Positions 11,645-62,166 of a DNA stretch of 64,000 nt are shown here, in pieces. A model generated the notes under the pieces. It saw only the letters and a list, made by a program, of their open reading frames with translations. It searched no databases and was not told the origin of the DNA. The stretch comes from a candidate division TM6 bacterium GW2011_GWF2_28_16 (GTDB taxonomy: Bacteria; Patescibacteriota; Microgenomatia; UBA1400; PJMF01): positions 195,407 through 259,406 of the forward strand of contig CP011212.1 of assembly GCA_001029715.1 (NCBI GenBank). Reading direction: 5' to 3'. Both the position numbers and the translations under genes were made by a program. Every line of letters starts with the position of its first letter. The stretch's first letter is position 1.

Positions 11645-13843
11645 ATGGCTAATTTTAAACGCAGCAAAAGAAAAAAACGCAAAGCAATTCGTCTTAAAAT
11701 GCGTAGCGACACTAGTTATTCAGTAGTGGCAGTTCTATTGATTTTGCTTGGTTTATTGGTCTTAATTTCATTTACCGGTCAAGGTCAATTGCTTATTTTC
11801 ATCAATGATATCCTGTCTTTAAAGTTTGGTTTATCAATGTTGTTTTTACCTTTTGTTTTGATTTCTGCAGGCTTAGTAATGCTACGTAGTAAACATGCTT
11901 GGTCAAAACCAACTATTTTACTTGGCACGATTTTACTAATGCTTGGTACCATGGGCGTTACTAAAAGTGGACAAGTAGGTTCAAGTCTTTTTGTTAATTT
12001 TGCCAGACTAATTACTGAATCTGGTTCCTATGCTTTTTTTAGCGCCATTGTTTTAATTGGTATTTTAATTTTGTCCCAATCTTCTTTATTGGAGCTGGTT
12101 GAATTACTTGGCAAATTATTTAAGAAGAGAGCCAAAGATAAAAAAGAAGCTAAAGATATTTTTGCTGATCAAGTCAGCGAAAAGGAAATCACTAAAGCCA
12201 AGGGTTTTTCTATTCCTAATTTTGGTTTTGGATTTAGTAAAGACAAAGGTCTTAAAAAAGGCTCTTCTTTTAATGAGGAAATTGAACAAGATAACAGTAG
12301 TGCTAAGGCAATTATTGAAGACGAGCTTAAAAAAGAAACCTCTTCTTCCAATCTTGATAATCAAGAAGCTCTTAACGCCTCTTCAGTGCCAATGATGTGG
12401 GATTATCCACCTTTATCCTTACTCTCACAAAAGTCTGGTGGCAAAGCCGACCGTGGAGATGTCAAAGGCAACGCAGCGATTATTGAAAACACTTTGGATT
12501 CTTTTGGTATTCAAGCCAAAGTGACTGAATATAATCCTGGTCCAGCAGTTACTCAATATGCGCTAGATATTAACAAAGGTACTCGTTTATCTAAGATTAC
12601 TGCTCTATCAACTGATTTAGCTTTAGCTTTATCTGCTCCAACTGGACAAATTCGTATCGAGGCGCCAATTCCAGGTCGTAATTTAGTTGGTGTTGAAGTG
12701 CCAAATCGTAGTGCTGAGTATGTCACTCTCAAAACCATGTTGTCATCTCCAGAGCTTAAAAAGCATAAATCTAAATTAGCCGTGGCTCTTGGCATAGATG
12801 TAGCTGGTCGTCCATCGATTGTTGATATTGCGGCGATGCCTCATTTATTAATCGCTGGTTCAACTGGTTCTGGTAAATCTGTTTGTATTAACTCTTTTAT
12901 GTGCTCAATTTTGTTTAGAGCTACGCCAGAAGAAGTTAAGTTTATTTTGGTTGATCCTAAGCGTGTCGAATTAACTGGCTACAATGACATTCCTCATTTA
13001 TTAACTCCAGTAATTGTTGAGCCAAATAAGGTTGTTTCTGCACTCAAGTGGGCCTGTCAAACTATGGACAAGCGCTACAAAATGTTGGCAGAAGTAGGTG
13101 TCAAAAATATTAATGAATATAATGAACTAGCTGGTTTGGCTTCCATGCCAAACATCGTGATTGTGATTGATGAGTTGGCTGATGTAATGCTCTTTGCGCC
13201 TTCAGAAGTTGAAGAGAGTGTGACGCGTATTGCTCAGATGGCTCGTGCCGTTGGTATCCATTTAGTTTTGGCTACTCAGCGTCCTTCTGTGGATGTCTTG
13301 ACCGGACTGATTAAAGCTAACGTACCAACTCGTATCGCTTTTAACGTGGCTTCGATGATGGACAGTCGTGTCATTTTGGATAGTCCAGGTGCAGAAAAAT
13401 TGCTTGGTCGTGGTGATATGCTTTTCCAAGCTCCAGACAAACCAAAGCCATCTCGTGTCCAGGGTACTTTTGTCAGTGTTCAAGAAACCAATAATTTGAT
13501 TAATTTCTTAAAATCCCAGGGTCAAAAACCTCATTATGAGGAAGAAATTACTACCAAGTATCAGTCTAGCAAAGTTACTGGGGGCAGTATGGGTTCTGAT
13601 GATGGTGGTGGATCAGATATTGATGATAAATGTGAGGCAGCGGCGCGGCTCTTTTTGACCGCCGATAAGGCTTCCTCCTCTTTGATTCAGCGTCGCATGT
13701 CTGTTGGCTATGCCCGCGCCGCTAGAATTCTAGATCAACTCTACGAACTCGGCATGGTTGGCCCTCCAGATGGCAGTAAGCCAAGAGAAGTCAACAACGG
13801 CAAAATTAGAGAGTTTTTGATGAGCAAAGAACAAGAAGGATAA
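11645..13843 (+). CDS. ftsK: DNA translocase FtsK/SpoIIIE
   Basis: N-terminal TM segments, Walker A GSTGSGKS, and a C-terminal gamma winged-helix (LIQRRMSVGYARAARILDQL). Confidence 0.85.
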   Translation: MANFKRSKRKKRKAIRLKMRSDTSYSVVAVLLILLGLLVLISFTGQGQLLIFINDILSLKFGLSMLFLPFVLISAGLVMLRSKHAWSKPTILLGTILLMLGTMGVTKSGQVGSSLFVNFARLITESGSYAFFSAIVLIGILILSQSSLLELVELLGKLFKKRAKDKKEAKDIFADQVSEKEITKAKGFSIPNFGFGFSKDKGLKKGSSFNEEIEQDNSSAKAIIEDELKKETSSSNLDNQEALNASSVPMMWDYPPLSLLSQKSGGKADRGDVKGNAAIIENTLDSFGIQAKVTEYNPGPAVTQYALDINKGTRLSKITALSTDLALALSAPTGQIRIEAPIPGRNLVGVEVPNRSAEYVTLKTMLSSPELKKHKSKLAVALGIDVAGRPSIVDIAAMPHLLIAGSTGSGKSVCINSFMCSILFRATPEEVKFILVDPKRVELTGYNDIPHLLTPVIVEPNKVVSALKWACQTMDKRYKMLAEVGVKNINEYNELAGLASMPNIVIVIDELADVMLFAPSEVEESVTRIAQMARAVGIHLVLATQRPSVDVLTGLIKANVPTRIAFNVASMMDSRVILDSPGAEKLLGRGDMLFQAPDKPKPSRVQGTFVSVQETNNLINFLKSQGQKPHYEEEITTKYQSSKVTGGSMGSDDGGGSDIDDKCEAAARLFLTADKASSSLIQRRMSVGYARAARILDQLYELGMVGPPDGSKPREVNNGKIREFLMSKEQEG

Positions 13844-13845
13844 AG

Positions 13846-14243
13846 TGGAGATGGCGGGTTATGAACCCGCGTCCGTATCCAAATGTTTAAATAGCTTCTA
13901 CAGATTTAGTTTGCTTTCGATTAAAGATCAATAAGTTGTACAAACAAACTTTTACTGACCTATCCGCGTTATGTCTTAGAACTTTTTGCAACGCGAGTTC
14001 AAAAAGTTAGCCAAGTGACTGAGTTTTCACTTACCTATCTGCATCACTAACACAAATAAATAAATGCCTAAATTAGCAATAAGCTAAAGCAGGAGCATTG
14101 AAACTGGCAACAAAATTGCTGACAGCAGTCTTTGCTTTTGAGATTATGTTATCGACATTTATTGTCCGGGCCTTTTTAATGTCTTTGGTCCAAAGACAAT
14201 CTGCGACTATCTAAAAGATGTTACGTCAAAGCAATACATCCCC
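13846..14243 (-). ncRNA. ssrA: tmRNA (SsrA)
   Basis: On the minus strand, the 5' GGGGATG pairs with the 3' CATCTCC to give G3:U70, and the discriminator is A. The T-arm is GCGGG-TTCATAA-CCCGC. An internal 44-codon stop-free frame ends ...PALAYC-TAA. Length is 398 nt. Confidence 0.7.
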
Positions 14244-15038: not shown

Positions 15039-15112
15039 GGACAATTAGCTCAGTTGGTTAGAGCGCACGATTCACATTCGTGAGGTCACAAGTTCGAGTC
15101 TTGTATTGTCCA
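15039..15112 (+). tRNA. tRNA-Val (anticodon CAC)
   Basis: Cloverleaf with acceptor GGACAAT/ATTGTCC, D-arm GCTCAGTTGGTTAGAGC, anticodon loop TTCACAT and T-arm ACAAGTTCGAGTCTTGT. No encoded CCA. Confidence 0.85.
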
Positions 15113-17374: not shown

Positions 17375-19279
17375 ATGTCAGATTTATCTTTTGTTCGTCA
17401 ACAATATTTGAACTATTTTAAGAGTTTGGATCATAAGATTGTGCCTTCAGCTCCTCTGGTTCCTGAAAATGATCCAAGTACTTTATTCACTAGTGCTGGC
17501 ATGCAGTCGATGATCCCTTATTTTTTTGGTGCGGCTCATCCTGAGGGTAAAAGAGTTGCCAATTCGCAAAAATGTTTCAGAGCTGATGACATTGAAGAAG
17601 TTGGCGATAATCGTCACACTACTTTTTTTGAAATGTTAGGTAATTGGTCTTTTGGAGATTATTTCAAAAAAGAACAGATTACTTTTGTTTTTAATTTTTT
17701 AGTCAAAGAACTAAAACTTGACCCAAAAAAGCTTTATGTATCCTGTTTTTCTGGTAATAAAGAATTAGGAATTGAGCGTGATAATGAAGCCGCTGAGCTT
17801 TGGCAGGAACTTTTTCAGAGCGTTGGAGTAGAGGCTAAAATTATTGACAATCCAGAGGAAGCTGGTTTGCAAGATGGAAAAATTTATTTTTACGGTGAGA
17901 AAAAAAATTGGTGGTCACGTTCTGGTGTGCCGGTCAACATGCCAGTTGGTGAACCGGGTGGACCAGACAGTGAGATTTTTTATGATTTTGGTGAGCAAGA
18001 TAGTGATCTAGCCAGAGCAATGCACGCTGAGAATCCTTGTCACATTAATTGCGATTGTGGCAGATTTTTGGAAATTGGTAATTCTGTTTTTATGCAGTAT
18101 CAAAAAACCAATTCTGGTTTTGTGCCACTCGCTCAAGCAAATATTGATTTCGGTGGCGGTTTAGGAAGAATTTTAGCAGCTTATCAGAATCAGCCGGATG
18201 TTTTTAAAACAGACGCCTTTTTACCTTTGATTGAAAAAATCCAATCTTTTACAAGTTTTAGTTACGACGATCAAGATAAACAAAAATATTTCCGAGTTAT
18301 TGCTGACCACATGAAAGCAGCAGTCATGTTGATGTCTGATGGAGTTTTTCCCTCAAGTAAAGAGCAGGGATATGTTTTGCGTCGTCTACTGCGTCGTGCT
18401 TTGCGCCAAGCCGCTTATTTAGAGATCAAACAGGAAACTTTAGTAGAATTAGTGCCAAGCGTAGTTGAGATCTATGCAGATTTTTATCCACAGCTTAAAG
18501 AACAACAGGCAAAAATTAGCCAAGTTTTAGCTGATGAGCAAAAGAAATTCAGTAGAAGTTTAAGTAAAGGTTTAAAAGAGTTTGAAAAAATGCTGGCTCA
18601 AAAAAGCCTTTTTACGGCTGAAATTGCCTTTTATTTATACGAAAGTTTTGGTTTTCCTTTTGAGCTTTCTCTCGAAGAGGCAAAGAATCGATCGCTGCAA
18701 ATAGAAGAAAAAATCGAAGAAAAATATCAATCCAAAAAAACTTTTCATTCGCTTAACTCCAAACAAGGTAGTCAAGCTCAGTTCAAGAGTGGTTTGGCTG
18801 ATCAAGGAGAAATGACCACTAAGTATCACACCGTCACTCATTTACTTCATGCTGCTTTACGTCAAGTTCTTGGTGACAGCGTGGAGCAAAAAGGTTCCAA
18901 TATTACTGCCGAGCGTTTGCGTTTTGACTTTTCTCATCCAAAAGCTTTAACCGCAGTAGAAAAAGCCAATGTGGAGTCTTTAATTAATGAGTGGATCAAG
19001 GCTGATTTTGAAGTTGATAAGCAGATTATGCCAAAGAGTGAGGCTCTGAAAACTGGCGCTGTTGCTTTATTTATTGATAAATATCCAGATATAGTCAATG
19101 TTTATTCAATTGGTAAAAATCCATCAGGCAATAAAAAAGGCGAAGATTTCATCTCTCGCGAGCTTTGTTCTGGTCCACATGTCGAGAGAACTGGGGTTAT
19201 TGGAGAGATCACTCTGACCAAGGAAAAAGCGGTTGCCGATGGGATCAGAAGAATATACGCTCTTCAAAAAAGCGCTTAA
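17375..19279 (+). CDS. alaS: alanine--tRNA ligase, shortened form lacking C-Ala domain
   Basis: Class II catalytic core (FTSAGMQ, RADDIEEVG, WSFGDYF) and editing HxxxH (HTVTHLLH). Only 634 aa. Confidence 0.85.
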   Translation: MSDLSFVRQQYLNYFKSLDHKIVPSAPLVPENDPSTLFTSAGMQSMIPYFFGAAHPEGKRVANSQKCFRADDIEEVGDNRHTTFFEMLGNWSFGDYFKKEQITFVFNFLVKELKLDPKKLYVSCFSGNKELGIERDNEAAELWQELFQSVGVEAKIIDNPEEAGLQDGKIYFYGEKKNWWSRSGVPVNMPVGEPGGPDSEIFYDFGEQDSDLARAMHAENPCHINCDCGRFLEIGNSVFMQYQKTNSGFVPLAQANIDFGGGLGRILAAYQNQPDVFKTDAFLPLIEKIQSFTSFSYDDQDKQKYFRVIADHMKAAVMLMSDGVFPSSKEQGYVLRRLLRRALRQAAYLEIKQETLVELVPSVVEIYADFYPQLKEQQAKISQVLADEQKKFSRSLSKGLKEFEKMLAQKSLFTAEIAFYLYESFGFPFELSLEEAKNRSLQIEEKIEEKYQSKKTFHSLNSKQGSQAQFKSGLADQGEMTTKYHTVTHLLHAALRQVLGDSVEQKGSNITAERLRFDFSHPKALTAVEKANVESLINEWIKADFEVDKQIMPKSEALKTGAVALFIDKYPDIVNVYSIGKNPSGNKKGEDFISRELCSGPHVERTGVIGEITLTKEKAVADGIRRIYALQKSA

Positions 19280-19294
19280 TTTTGCTTTAATGGA

Positions 19295-19458
19295 ATAGAG
19301 TTCTGTACTTTAATACAGTCACGCTTCACTAAAATTGTTTGTTATTTAAATTAACAATCTTCTTTTCGCTCAGTGAAGTCGCTGTTTATTGAATAAGTGC
19401 CAACTCACGCTAATTAATCAGCTCCTTCAATGGACTGTATTAAAGTACAGAACTCTAT
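19295..19458. repeat. 164-bp structured element with 26-bp perfect terminal inverted repeats (copy 1)
   Basis: ATAGAGTTCTGTACTTTAATACAGTC at 19295-19320 is the exact reverse complement of 19433-19458. The core is ~80% identical to the reverse complement of 52114-52260. Confidence 0.7.
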
Positions 19459-19477
19459 ATAATAAAAACTAAACGTT

Positions 19478-21697
19478 ATGCCCGACCAAGAGAAACATTA
19501 TTTTCTTACTGTTTTGTTGACTGATAAGTTTTTGCAATCATCTTTGGTTTCAAATAATGGTCAAGGTATTCAGATCAAAGAATTTTCAGAAATTAAGGCT
19601 TATTTCGATCGTAAAGATTTACTAGAGCAACTAGATAAAAGTTTGCAGCAGCTGGGTCCAGATTCTCAAGATGTAGTGGAAACTGTTTTTGCTTTTGATA
19701 ACACTTGGCTAGAAGATAAAGATCTAAGCGATACAAAGAAGCCTATCGTTAAGGAAATTTCTGAAGAATTAAGCTTAGATGCCATTGGACAATTTAGTAT
19801 TTCGGAAGCTATGGCTGAAGCTCGTTTAATTGGAGATGAGGGTGATTCTTGTCTTTTACTGATTTTCAAAGAAGATAGTTTTGATCTTATTTTTCTCAAA
19901 CATGGACAATTCTTAGATTTAATCACAGTTGGTCGCTCTGGAAATATAGTAAATGACTTCAATGAAGTTTTAGCCAGAGCATCTAAACATTTAGGTCAAG
20001 AAGGCAAATACTTTCCAAATAAAATTTTAATGACTTCTATTGCCCTTAAGCAAAAAGAGTTGGAGTCTTTACACGATCAATTAGTCAAAGAAGATTGGAC
20101 AAATAATCCTGGTTTCACTCAAGCTCCAAATATTGTTGTTTTGGAGGCTGATTATATGATCAAATCAGTAAGTTTGAGTGCTGGGAAAATTTTCACTAAA
20201 GAAAATTTTCTAGCTAAAATGCCAAACGCTGGCGAGCAAAGAATTGATACATCAAGGCAAGAGATAAAGCCAGAGCCAGAAAAAGAAATTGAGCCAGATT
20301 TATCATTAGAACAGGTTGAGGAATTGAAACCAGTTGGACCAACTATCGAGCCAATTAAAAATCAAATAAATGAAGATTATGCAGTTGAAAAGCCAAGCGC
20401 TAGTAGTTTTGGGATTAAATTCGATCAGAATTATTTTTCTAAAGACAAAGAGAAGGCTGTAATGCAAGATCAAGATTTCCAAAGAATCGAAGAAACAAAA
20501 AATCAGTCTAAAAAGAAACGTTCTCCTTTGGCTAGATTTTATCTAGCTCACAAGAAAATGATTTTACTTGGCTTTGCTGCCGGTTTATTAGCTGTTCTAT
20601 TAATTTTTACTATTTTTTCTTTTTTCTTTTCTAAGGTTAAAGTTATTTTAACTCCTGAACAAACCTTACTCCAAAAAAATGTTGCCATTGTTCTGGATCC
20701 GAATATTGAAGATTCTGATTTTAGTAAAGCACTTTTAAAAGCTTCTTTAGAAGATAAAGAGATTAGCGGTCAAGATGTTACTGCCACTACTGGTATTGGT
20801 TTGGTAGGTGATAAAGCAAAAGGTAAAGTTGCTATTTATAATAAAACTTCTGAAGAAACTGAACTAAATAGTGGAACGATTATTAGTAGTGAAGGAATTA
20901 AATTTTTACTTGATGAGACAGTTAAGGTTCCTGCTGCTACCGAAAAAGATGGTGGTTCTGGTGTAGATTACGGCAAAATTGAAGTAGCGGTTACAGCCAA
21001 TGATATTGGCTCAGAAGCTAATCTCAATAAAGATACCAAGTTTCGCGTGGCTGATTACTTTGATGATAAGTTTTCTGCTACTGCGACCGACACTTTCTCT
21101 GGTGGTTCTAGTCGAGAAGTTAGAGTTGTAGCAGAAGTTGATCAAAGTCGTTTGCTTGCTAGTTTGAGTGAAAAATTAGTAATCGAAGCAAGTAAAGAAC
21201 TTGAAGAAGAATCTAAAGATGGCGTCCATTTAGTTCCCACTAGTAAGACTACTGTAACAAAGAGCGATTTTTCTGCCAAAGTTGGAGATGAAACAGAGTC
21301 ATTGAGTCTGGATCTCAGCTTGGAAGTTGAAGCAGTCAAATATCTTTCTTCAGATCTTAAGCAATTAGCATTGGCGATTCTTAAAGAAGATTTGCCAGAT
21401 GGTTATGCTTTTATCGACCAAGATCCATCTTTATTAAGTGATAAAGCCCAAGTGGCATCAGGATCAAGTAAGATTAAATTAAATGCTGACTTAAGTGCTA
21501 AAGCTGTGGCTAGTTTAAAATTAGACGAGCTAAAAAAAGAAGTTTTAGGTCAGCAGTGGTCTGAAGTAATTAAGAACTTAGAAGATAAAAGTGAGATTAA
21601 GCAGGTTCAGGTAATTTACAATCCGCCTTTTTTGAATGGCATTTTACGTAAGTTGCCAAGTGATCAGTCCAGAATTACCGTAGAACTGAGTAAGTAA
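19478..21697 (+). CDS. large bitopic membrane protein, function unknown, adjacent to sortase
   Basis: 739 aa with a single central TM (ILLGFAAGLLAVLLIFTIFSFFF) separating two roughly 350-aa domains. Confidence 0.5.
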   Translation: MPDQEKHYFLTVLLTDKFLQSSLVSNNGQGIQIKEFSEIKAYFDRKDLLEQLDKSLQQLGPDSQDVVETVFAFDNTWLEDKDLSDTKKPIVKEISEELSLDAIGQFSISEAMAEARLIGDEGDSCLLLIFKEDSFDLIFLKHGQFLDLITVGRSGNIVNDFNEVLARASKHLGQEGKYFPNKILMTSIALKQKELESLHDQLVKEDWTNNPGFTQAPNIVVLEADYMIKSVSLSAGKIFTKENFLAKMPNAGEQRIDTSRQEIKPEPEKEIEPDLSLEQVEELKPVGPTIEPIKNQINEDYAVEKPSASSFGIKFDQNYFSKDKEKAVMQDQDFQRIEETKNQSKKKRSPLARFYLAHKKMILLGFAAGLLAVLLIFTIFSFFFSKVKVILTPEQTLLQKNVAIVLDPNIEDSDFSKALLKASLEDKEISGQDVTATTGIGLVGDKAKGKVAIYNKTSEETELNSGTIISSEGIKFLLDETVKVPAATEKDGGSGVDYGKIEVAVTANDIGSEANLNKDTKFRVADYFDDKFSATATDTFSGGSSREVRVVAEVDQSRLLASLSEKLVIEASKELEEESKDGVHLVPTSKTTVTKSDFSAKVGDETESLSLDLSLEVEAVKYLSSDLKQLALAILKEDLPDGYAFIDQDPSLLSDKAQVASGSSKIKLNADLSAKAVASLKLDELKKEVLGQQWSEVIKNLEDKSEIKQVQVIYNPPFLNGILRKLPSDQSRITVELSK

Positions 21698-21702
21698 TCT
21701 CT

Positions 21703-22644
21703 ATGTCAAAAAATTTCAAAATAAATAAGCAAGAGTTGCTAGGGGTTTACAGGCAAGCTCTCTTAAAGAATGTTTCTTTGGATGAGTTAGATAATAAATT
21801 TTCTGATTTTATTAAGCGTGACGCAGCTAATAAAAATTTTGAAAAAGAGCTGGATAAAAAAATTGAATCTAAATTTTGGCAGCGCATCCCACAGTATATT
21901 AAGGTTGGCGCTGCCGCAATGCCATTAATTCTAATTATCATAGGGATTGTTTTAGCTGGTAGCGCTGCTTGGCCAATTATTAGTCAAGTTTTAACTAAAA
22001 ATGATCAAAAGGCAAGTGAACTATTGTCTCCTCTGTCTAAAACTCAAATAGCAAATTCCAATAACTTAGTTTTTGCCAAATCTAGTTTAATCGATGAAAA
22101 TGAAGTAGCTCCAGTTTTAGATGAGCCAATTATTTTAGATTACAATCTCGATTACACTGACTTAAGTAATTGGTTTGATGAGCAAAGTTCTGCTTTTTCA
22201 GATGTTGATTATCAGGCTGAAGAATATCGTCTTGATATTCCAGCAGTGAATGTCAGCAATGCCAAGGTTAAAGTTGGTGGTACAGATCTCAATAAAAGCT
22301 TAATTCAATATCCTGGCACCGCTCTTCCTGGTCAGCCTGGTGCCCCAGTGATTTTTGGTCATTCTGTTTTGCGTCAGTTTTATAATCCTAGTGAAAAGAA
22401 TTCTCGTCGCTACACTTCTATTTTTAGCAAAATTATGACTCTCAAAAATGGAGATATGATTTATTTGACTTATAATAACGCCAAATATACTTATCAGGTG
22501 CAAAGCAATACCGAGGTGAAGCCAACTGATACTTTTATTTTGGCGCAACGCTATGATGCTCGTCAACTTAAGTTAGTCACTTGTGTTCCAGAGGGAACGG
22601 TTCTACGTCGAGGAGTGGTAATAGCACAGCTAATAAAAGAATAA
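21703..22644 (+). CDS. sortase family transpeptidase
   Basis: N-terminal TM anchor, catalytic His in VIFGHS, the LVTCVP Cys motif, and a downstream Arg. Confidence 0.7.
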   Translation: MSKNFKINKQELLGVYRQALLKNVSLDELDNKFSDFIKRDAANKNFEKELDKKIESKFWQRIPQYIKVGAAAMPLILIIIGIVLAGSAAWPIISQVLTKNDQKASELLSPLSKTQIANSNNLVFAKSSLIDENEVAPVLDEPIILDYNLDYTDLSNWFDEQSSAFSDVDYQAEEYRLDIPAVNVSNAKVKVGGTDLNKSLIQYPGTALPGQPGAPVIFGHSVLRQFYNPSEKNSRRYTSIFSKIMTLKNGDMIYLTYNNAKYTYQVQSNTEVKPTDTFILAQRYDARQLKLVTCVPEGTVLRRGVVIAQLIKE

Positions 22645-51998: not shown

Positions 51999-52053
51999 AC
52001 TTATCTCGTCCTCCGTCTCCACTCCGGACATTCCCTCGCAAAGCTCGGTCAAA

Positions 52054-52080
52054 AAAACCCGCTCTTTTGAGCGGGTTTTT
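52054..52080 (+). terminator. rho-independent terminator after rpsI
   Basis: AACCCGCTC-TTTT-GAGCGGGTT hairpin followed by TTTTT. Confidence 0.8.
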
Positions 52081-52113
52081 AAATTCATTCCATTAAGAAT
52101 TGCGATATTTTTA

Positions 52114-52260
52114 GCACTTAAACTCATGTCCATTGAAGGAGCTGATCTATAAAACATAAATTAGCACTTACGTAATGGAACAGCGACTTCACTGAGTGAG
52201 ACAAAGATTGATGCTTAAAAAAGCAAACAATTTTAGTCGAACGTGACTGAGTTTAAGTGC
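52114..52260. repeat. 147-bp structured element (copy 2), homologous to 19295-19458 in reverse orientation
   Basis: Terminal stem GCACTTAAACTCA/TGAGTTTAAGTGC differs from copy 1. The core (GTCCATTGAAGGAGCTGAT, AACAGCGACTTCACTGAG, CAAACAATTTTAGT) is conserved. Confidence 0.7.
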
Positions 52261-52269
52261 AAAAATATA

Positions 52270-52545
52270 TTACCAAACTTCTTTTTTAAGAGGTTTGCCA
52301 ACACGGAAGTTAATGACCTTATGTCCTTTAACTAATTGTCTCTTAGCTTTATCGCCAAAAGGTTCGACGTGCTTATCATTGACTTTATTTACATAAAAAG
52401 TACCAAAGCCGGATAAAACGACTTTATCGCCTTTTTTCAAACTGCGAATGATTTCTTCAAACAATGACTCAACTGCTTCTGAGGAAGCTTTCTTGGTCAA
52501 ATGAGCTTTTTTGGCGACGACATTAATCAAATCTGATTTTGTCAT
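52270..52545 (-). CDS. hup: HU-family DNA-binding protein
   Basis: MTKSDLI..VA and GFGTF...R arm motifs. Confidence 0.9.
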   Translation of the reverse strand: MTKSDLINVVAKKAHLTKKASSEAVESLFEEIIRSLKKGDKVVLSGFGTFYVNKVNDKHVEPFGDKAKRQLVKGHKVINFRVGKPLKKEVW

Positions 52546-62083: not shown

Positions 62084-62166
62084 CGGAGATGACAGGATTC
62101 GAACCTGCGAAGCCGTGAGGCTCACGCTTTCCAAGCGTGTGCAATTGACCGCTATGCGACATCTCC
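62084..62166 (-). tRNA. tRNA-Ser (anticodon GGA), type II with long variable arm
   Basis: Acceptor GGAGATG/CATCTCC, anticodon loop TTGGAAA, variable arm AGCCTCACGGCTTC and T-arm GCAGGTTCGAATCCTGT. No encoded CCA. Confidence 0.85.

Follow-up and report, generated by a model that had tools for sequence, protein, structure and literature searches.

A patchily distributed family of palindromic repeats in Microgenomates-type bacteria

The DNA analysed here, a stretch of 64,000 nt (the window), holds two copies of a palindromic element. Copy A (19295–19458, + strand, 164 nt) lies between alaS (17375–19279, +, Pfam tRNA-synt_2c) and an ORF of 739 aa (19478–21697, +). Its first base lies 16 nt past the end of the alaS stop codon, and 19 nt separate its end from the next ORF (19478). 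Copy B (52105–52268, − strand, 164 nt) starts 1 nt past the stop codon of hup (52270–52545, −, Pfam Bac_DNA_binding), which encodes HU. It is located between this stop codon and the rpsI/hup bidirectional terminator, a G+C-rich hairpin with flanking A/T runs (52053–52080) found by repeat search between rpsI and copy B. The hairpin was assigned as a bidirectional terminator by its form, and it is kept in relatives without the element.

The window alaS product has 634 aa, and its homologues in the retrieved relatives have 618–684 aa; the alanyl-tRNA synthetases of model bacteria are longer than 634 aa. The 739-aa ORF gave only a sub-threshold Baseplate_J match and is followed by a sortase gene (window 19478–22644). 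The order alaS, ~730-aa ORF, sortase, ruvX, yceG, rpoB, rpoC is syntenic in all relatives fetched; in the contig of one of them (L152), part of the yceG region is hidden by a run of N that starts at about 16047. Rfam matches in the window were a tmRNA (13843–14243, −, 89 bits) and two tRNAs (15039–15112, +; 62084–62166, −), and none other.

The two arms of the copy A closing palindrome (P1; 19295–19320 and 19433–19458) are paired at 26 of 26 positions, all Watson–Crick. By repeat search the inverted repeat extends to 41 nt at 85% (19280–19320 / 19433–19473). The inner part of the 5' arm (about 19305–19320) reads GTACTTTAATACAGTC and is common to copies at other loci, whereas the outer ~10 nt are locus-specific. 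The closing stem encloses two hairpins. P2 (19323–19369) has a variable distal loop. P3 (19371–19432) has an almost invariant base, in which CA.UGAAG.UC.GCUG (19371–19384) pairs with CAGC.UC.CUUCA.UG (19419–19432), and a variable distal part (19385–19418). The 5' half of P3 also has an alternative 5-bp hairpin (19371–19390, +; CAGUG AAGU CGCUG, then UUUAUU) that a scan flagged as terminator-like. A compensated change in one other copy (L018b) keeps P3 and not this alternative hairpin.

In copy B, a repeat search placed the 5' arm at 52245–52268 and the 3' arm at 52105–52130 (both on the minus strand). The closing stem has 24 pairs and two bulged bases, both in the 3' arm. Copies A and B aligned with 82% column identity. 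Their arms have different sequences, yet they are complementary within each copy; four paired positions differ between the copies, and all four differences are compensated. Two blocks, CTCAGTGAAGTCGCTGTT and ATCAGCTCCTTCAATGGAC, are identical in A and B and absent elsewhere in the window, where 0.00–0.04 matches are expected by chance. Folded as RNA, either strand of both copies gave z = −9.0 to −9.9, and none of 200 shuffles was as good; folded as DNA, both copies gave z = −8.8 against shuffles. A preliminary description of this DNA had reported a 164-bp element with 26-bp perfect inverted termini 16 nt after the alaS stop, an interior about 80% identical to the reverse complement of 52114–52260, and termini that differ between the two copies while both form long closing stems. 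Our coordinates, arm pairing and alignment agree with each of these points, the second region being the interior of copy B.

Relatives of the element were then collected. A scan of a genome collection with the two-block pattern gave 8 real relatives among 118 loci listed, and the rest were mostly chance matches in G+C-rich coding DNA. The same scan of metagenomes added three copies, and the covariance model R1 added two more. The family has at least 15 copies in about nine Patescibacteria assemblies. R1 scored the 15 copies at 104–157 bits (copy A, 153.8; copy B, 146.4), and all else in ~560 kb of scanned Patescibacteria DNA at 25 bits or less. About 400 kb of DNA from relatives yielded no additional copy. 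Copies are 155–176 nt long with closing stems of 21–31 bp, and at least two copies are present in each of four metagenome-assembled genomes (MAGs) and in the window.

The hosts include Ca. Microgenomatus, a "Parcubacteria group" MAG, several AT-rich MAGs labelled Pseudomonadales, and three metagenome contigs. The HU, AlaRS and Obg proteins of the relatives carry source names including Woesebacteria, Pacebacteria and Patescibacteria group. Loci L002, L113, L019, L072 and L161 (CAZFIY01, CAZBVY01, CAZIBP01) come from MAGs of 34–37% G+C titled "uncultured Pseudomonadales bacterium". Their gene order is of the Patescibacteria type and their proteins are those of the clade to which the window belongs; the label looks wrong.

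Known families gave no match. With Rfam 15 at gathering thresholds, nothing was found at copy A or B, the 6S, SRP, Y RNA, hammerhead and tRNA-like families included. In a permissive search, the best matches by E-value were plant miRNA hairpins at 18–19 bits, against cut-offs of 56–144 bits. The suggested comparison with known small RNA classes such as 6S thus yielded no Rfam family. Likenesses to retron msr/msd, 6S, SRP, 5S and Y-RNA were set aside, as they had no Rfam support and no reverse transcriptase is adjacent. A hammerhead-like motif on the reverse strand (CUGA..GA / GAA) was rejected for its junction lengths and a paired 15.1–16.1 position, again without an Rfam match. A small ORF was also rejected: the reverse-strand Shine–Dalgarno-like GAAGGAG has no start codon after it, and by eye the conservation is not codon-like. 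Plasmid, phage and viral collections gave no match (viral contigs were scanned with three patterns, including single-block ones), and no description of such a palindromic repeat was found in the literature searched. The family is a previously undescribed, patchily distributed palindromic repeat of Microgenomates-type bacteria.

All 15 copies have the same consensus fold, a three-way junction made of the closing stem P1 and the hairpins P2 and P3. The core is ~115 nt long and consists of the two imperfect hairpins with conserved mismatches. Of the alignment cells, 92.8% are paired, and double changes occur at 18 pairs, a number reached by none of 500 shuffles. Among the 16 pairs modelled for the closing stem, 14 covary; this signal is confounded by the capture of flanking DNA (see below). 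Covariation in the interior, which flank capture does not account for, comes from three pairs. The P2 junction pairs 19–67 (GC 11, AU 3, GU 1) and 20–66 (UA 8, CG 7), which are 19323–19369 and 19324–19368 in copy A, covary across the family, and the P3 pair 72–130 has a single compensated change, from U–A to A–U, in L018 2432–2573.

The covarying fold is one reason to consider a structured non-coding RNA family, in which an RNA of ~165 nt, made from its own promoter or processed by RNase III, would act in trans or in cis on the flanking mRNAs. Such a family would be new to Rfam. We regard this reading as possible but on balance unlikely. The conserved 2 × 2 internal loops in the near-invariant helices are tandem G·A/A·G mismatches on the reverse strand, and that strand folds ~4 kcal/mol better in 12 of 14 copies; both are weak points in favour of an RNA. 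On the other hand, when only the interior was folded the stability was modest (mean z −1.7 forward and −2.5 reverse). The preliminary description had argued for a structured RNA family; the family and its conserved fold proved real, but the case for an RNA is weakened by the strand symmetry, the mixed orientation and the origin of the obg-site arms described below.

The copies are flanked by functionally unrelated housekeeping genes. The neighbours include alaS, hup/rpsI, dnaX, obg/M23 peptidase, an xerC-like gene, a GT2 glycosyltransferase, an rluB-like gene, sufD/sufS, a PduO-type adenosyltransferase/lexA-like pair (the lexA-like call was made by eye only) and pilin/TPR genes. Each window copy lies 3' of a gene in the same orientation, as had been pointed out earlier. 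Two further, independent contexts depart from this arrangement: at obg (L018, L119, L161) and likewise at the rluB site (L064, L121), the element is antisense to both of its co-directional neighbours. Occurrence in both orientations speaks against a structured RNA family. Promoter signals were no more helpful to that reading. Boxes resembling −10 elements, including extended ones, were equally frequent on both sides of the element, which gives no support to an own promoter, and consensus promoter and terminator scans of the copies gave nothing above shuffles. A cis-regulatory leader or riboswitch was likewise rejected, since there is no relation among the downstream genes, and some copies lie antisense or ahead of a terminator. 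The unrelated neighbours, the mixed orientation and the lack of a promoter signal therefore indicate a dispersed repeat rather than a regulon leader or an RNA gene with a visible promoter.

Two neighbourhoods had further features. In L019, ~1.6 kb beside the copy (1227–2830) contains neither an ORF of at least 100 aa nor an Rfam match, and a gene for a XerC/D-type tyrosine recombinase begins ~20 nt beyond the other side of the element. In L164 (9232–9420) and L018 (2420–2640), the called GTG start of a pilin-like (N_methyl) gene falls inside an arm. The resulting protein is 11 aa longer than in element-less relatives, and the start is probably mis-called.

Homologues of HU, AlaRS and Obg served to fetch orthologous loci. 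Next to alaS, the element is present in the window and in L113 (AlaRS 79% identical). The site is empty in L155/L156, whose alaS is 95% identical to that of the window, and in L150/L151 and L152–L154; in these relatives the ORF corresponding to the 739-aa one follows alaS after a spacer of 21–26 nt. The hup–rpsI spacer is 52–107 nt and without the element in every relative examined, with empty alleles in L158–L160 (HU 90–91%), L132 and L138–L149. At the copy B position, L133–L136 (L133 6347–6452) have only a 13-bp hairpin, TTTTTTGTTCTTTAT/AAAAAGTACAAAAAA, homologous to the arms. It represents either a symmetric central deletion of the element or an excision footprint. Between the M23 peptidase gene and obg, L018, L119 and L161 carry the element; L162, L163 and L164/L165 lack it, and the Obg of L164/L165 is 94% identical to that of L018. 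At two sites, the element is missing in the nearest relative and present in more distant ones, which means that it either inserted more than once at one spot or was cleanly lost several times.

Filled and empty alleles thus occur among close relatives, and the element has therefore been gained and/or cleanly lost on short time scales. Presence and absence between very close relatives is the behaviour of mobile or unstable DNA and not of a housekeeping RNA gene; at every site checked, the element is missing in the closest relatives. This pattern is the one line of evidence that bears on mobility, and it suggests that the element may move. Direct target-site duplications, which had been named as a test of a MITE origin, were sought in the filled/empty comparisons at alaS, hup and obg, and none was found. 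At the obg site the duplication is inverted, not direct.

The obg site revealed where variable arm sequence can come from. The empty allele reads TAA-TTATTAAATAAAAGGTTTACGA-ATG. In the filled allele of L018, one arm leads into the start codon as ...GGCTAAGAAAATATAAAAAGGTTTACGA-ATG, and the opposite arm starts with the inverted copy TCGTAAACCTTTTTAT. The L018 arm adjoining the obg start codon ends in ...ATAAAAAGGTTTACGA-ATG, which is the native spacer with its Shine–Dalgarno-like AAAGG, and the outer 16 nt of this arm are the native spacer of the empty allele. In L119 and L161, only ATAAAGG/CCTTTAT is included in the palindrome. With the native spacer in one arm and its inverted copy in the other, the outer stem at this site is an inverted flank duplication whose extent depends on the lineage. 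Read along the element, the native flank forms the outer 5' arm and its inverted copy the outer 3' arm. The obg-site arms grew by flank capture at the DNA level, and one arm holds local DNA. At this site (L018 5795–6024; L119; L161 9813–10000), the AAAGG of the essential obg gene lies inside a 22–28-bp perfect palindrome, which in L018 abuts the ATG.

At the alaS site, the native alaS–ORF spacer TTTTGCTTTAATGGA (19280–19294, +) is present in all empty alleles (L150–L156), and a right-hand tail, ATAATAAAAACTAAA (19459–19473, +), is present in filled alleles only. The two are weakly complementary (9 of 15 positions). The tail is probably a diverged inverted copy of the spacer, although the match is suggestive and not significant alone. 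At the hup site, no flank capture was found. The similarity between the alaS target site and an element arm (CTTTAAT in the alaS spacer) was judged not significant.

Across loci, the outermost 5–15 bp of the element are different every time. The family's inner inverted repeat is ~12–18 bp, with the consensus GCACTTTAATACAGTC / GACTGTATTAAAGTGC. The inner 16 bp of copy A are 88–94% identical to those of L019, L113, L120 and L002, and the inner ~16 bp of the stem are 88–97% identical among copy A, L019, L113 and L120. They are common only to a subfamily of copies, and their occurrence at different loci makes them part of the element itself. The earlier argument that different termini with preserved pairing point to RNA is undercut by the obg-site result. 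Because the arms at obg include copied neighbouring DNA, differing stems are by themselves no proof of an RNA gene, and the outer stem of that site does not count in favour of one.

Template switching creates, homogenises and expands inverted repeats (bioRxiv 10.1101/2021.04.15.439925; PMC8604942; PMC13100816), and such switching during replication would explain the obg-site arms. We compared the same-site copies L018 and L119. Their inner stems are ~50% identical and their whole arms match at ~15 of 28 positions (by eye). This divergence is near neutral, as four-fold sites are 41–47% identical, yet the arms stay paired. Near-neutral divergence with kept complementarity is predicted by copying from arm to arm and is harder to obtain by paired substitutions. 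In the L018b/L164 pair, one arm collects uncorrected changes, and homogenisation is therefore intermittent rather than constant.

The pairing statistics are symmetric between the strands. In the closing stems of 15 copies, 375 positions comprise 354 Watson–Crick pairs, 6 G·U, 6 A·C and 9 other mismatches, with 4 bulges in addition. The interior helices P2 and P3 have 6 G·U against 8 A·C, and all helices together have 12 G·U-type against 14 A·C-type pairs. For a strand-specific RNA, G·U is expected far above A·C on that strand. G·U did not exceed A·C on either strand in any helix; this speaks against a constraint from a strand-specific RNA and for one that acts at the DNA level on both strands alike.

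The core is nevertheless conserved, and this counts among the points in favour of a non-coding RNA. In three same-site comparisons, core identity is 73–81% and the two blocks are 100% identical, far above the four-fold degenerate sites of the flanking genes (40–49% identical, which is saturation). The core is therefore constrained or homogenised. Part of the identity may come from conversion between copies, as suggested by L113, whose P2 is 88% identical to its paralogue L002 and 73% to the same-site copy A. Another part may reflect ascertainment: copies were found via exact matches to the two core blocks, which inflates the apparent core conservation. Such conservation is not expected of a purely selfish relic and suggests instead a function for the host or as an RNA, or else frequent conversion. 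Mismatches conserved in the near-invariant hairpins suggest that a protein recognises a folded single strand.

We also considered a canonical MITE, which would have arisen from an insertion sequence by deletion and would be moved in trans by a transposase that binds its terminal inverted repeats. The element is short, non-coding, intergenic, multi-copy and palindromic, shows presence/absence polymorphism, and in one subfamily has a common ~16-bp inner stem at different loci. These are MITE features, and yet this origin is improbable. The outermost termini are not shared between copies and three filled/empty comparisons are without direct duplication, in line with the initial judgement that this is not a transposase-recognised MITE with identical termini. 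The interior is more conserved than the ends, the reverse of the situation in MITEs. No transposase lies beside any copy, the sole recombinase-family neighbour being the XerC/D-like gene in L019, and the searches of plasmid, phage and viral collections gave no match.

Least probable is that the P3 arm is a mimic or relic of the 16S rRNA 3' end, serving as a decoy for factors that bind there or left from an internally deleted rRNA gene with its processing stem. The arm, GUGAAGUCG-[~35-nt hairpin]-AUCAGCUCCUU, resembles 16S 1488–1496 / h45 / 1530–1540; when aligned collinearly to E. coli rrsH (L157), 13 of 15 copies match best at precisely 1488–1496 plus 1530–1540, with similar spacing, and TGGATCAGCTCCTT in L019 matches the 16S end locally at 13 of 14 positions. 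However, for most copies 1–25 of 200 shuffles reached the chain score, the copies are not independent, the intervening P3 hairpin is variable and lacks the conserved h45 loop, and the two P3 blocks pair together in the element as the corresponding 16S blocks do not. No rRNA gene is present in the retrieved relatives' loci. The preliminary description had seen a likeness of the core to the 16S anti-Shine–Dalgarno sequence; the resemblance is there, but the CUCCUU in question lies inside helix P3, paired with GUGAAG, and is marginal against shuffles. We treat it as a lead and not as a finding.

With modest confidence, we favour a dispersed non-coding palindromic repeat of Microgenomates-type Patescibacteria, MITE-like in an atypical way, that behaves like a non-autonomous mobile element. 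Several known systems resemble it in part. Correia/NEMIS elements of Neisseria and ERIC elements of enterobacteria are MITEs that are co-transcribed and form long hairpins. Like them, the present element is 100–170 bp in size class, intergenic, near gene ends, found in both orientations and variably present, with hairpins formed by terminal repeats. In contrast to it, those MITEs carry conserved terminal repeats together with a TA duplication; here the outer arms are locus-specific, no direct duplication was seen, and the interior is conserved. REPINs, which are REP doublets mobilised by RAYT, are also hairpin-forming dispersed repeats that persist at their sites for long and keep their pairing, and their mobilisation is thought to act on folded single strands without target duplication. 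REPINs differ in that conservation lies in the REP arms around a short, variable loop, while the present element has variable arms and a conserved, structured loop of 115 nt. No RAYT gene was seen in the DNA retrieved.

Integron attC sites offer another parallel. These imperfect palindromes vary in sequence but retain their fold and particular unpaired bases; they lie at the 3' ends of genes, and recognition acts on their folded single strands. They have R'' (RYYYAAC) and R' (GTTRRRY) outer core sites and no conserved interior, and they occur in cassette arrays with an integrase alongside. The outer ends of the present element are free and locus-specific, its interior is conserved, and its neighbours are core housekeeping genes; membership among attC sites was rejected on the outer ends and the neighbours. 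Finally, homogenisation of inverted repeats by template switching (quasipalindrome correction) accounts for near-perfect arms, paired changes without wobble intermediates, and growth into the flank at obg. It is a mutational process and not an element, and it leaves the homologous core at unrelated loci unexplained.

These features can be combined into a model for the favoured dispersed repeat. The unit would comprise the ~115-nt three-way-junction core, the inner inverted repeat and, as seen at obg, an outer extension derived from neighbouring DNA. It would land in very short intergenic spacers, by start or stop codons and in either orientation, without direct target duplication. During replication, the hairpin would promote intramolecular template switching (snap-back synthesis), which would copy the adjacent native flank, inverted, onto the far side and re-homogenise the arms in some copies. 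If flank copying is general beyond obg, arms would differ between loci and still stay almost perfectly Watson–Crick. The same hairpin may make the element prone to clean deletion. When read-through from a neighbouring operon covers it, either strand would give a long perfect duplex, a likely RNase III or termination site; this transcript duplex would be a by-product and not the constraint that shaped the arms. The core may be kept by purifying selection or by conversion between copies. It would most likely be recognised as a folded single-stranded nucleic acid by a protein, either a mobilising recombinase or a host factor. A mobilising gene, an autonomous parent and a conserved target motif were not found.

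A more specific version of the model would make the family a new kind of small mobile element, which integrates or grows by snap-back template switching and not through a cut-and-paste transposase, leaves an inverted flank duplication, and has a core selected for recognition, as a folded single strand, by a Patescibacteria protein. We hold this version to be doubtful.

Spacers are very short in the tiny, streamlined genomes of Patescibacteria, which makes any repeat kept between essential genes worth noting. For the discovery of non-coding RNAs, the family carries a caveat: perfect compensation in a long closing stem can come from palindrome maintenance at the DNA level together with flank capture, and not from selection on an RNA. 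It is a natural example of that caveat, with the flank copying directly visible at one site. The conserved structured core can be tracked by a covariance model and could lead to a partner protein or a mobilisation mechanism.
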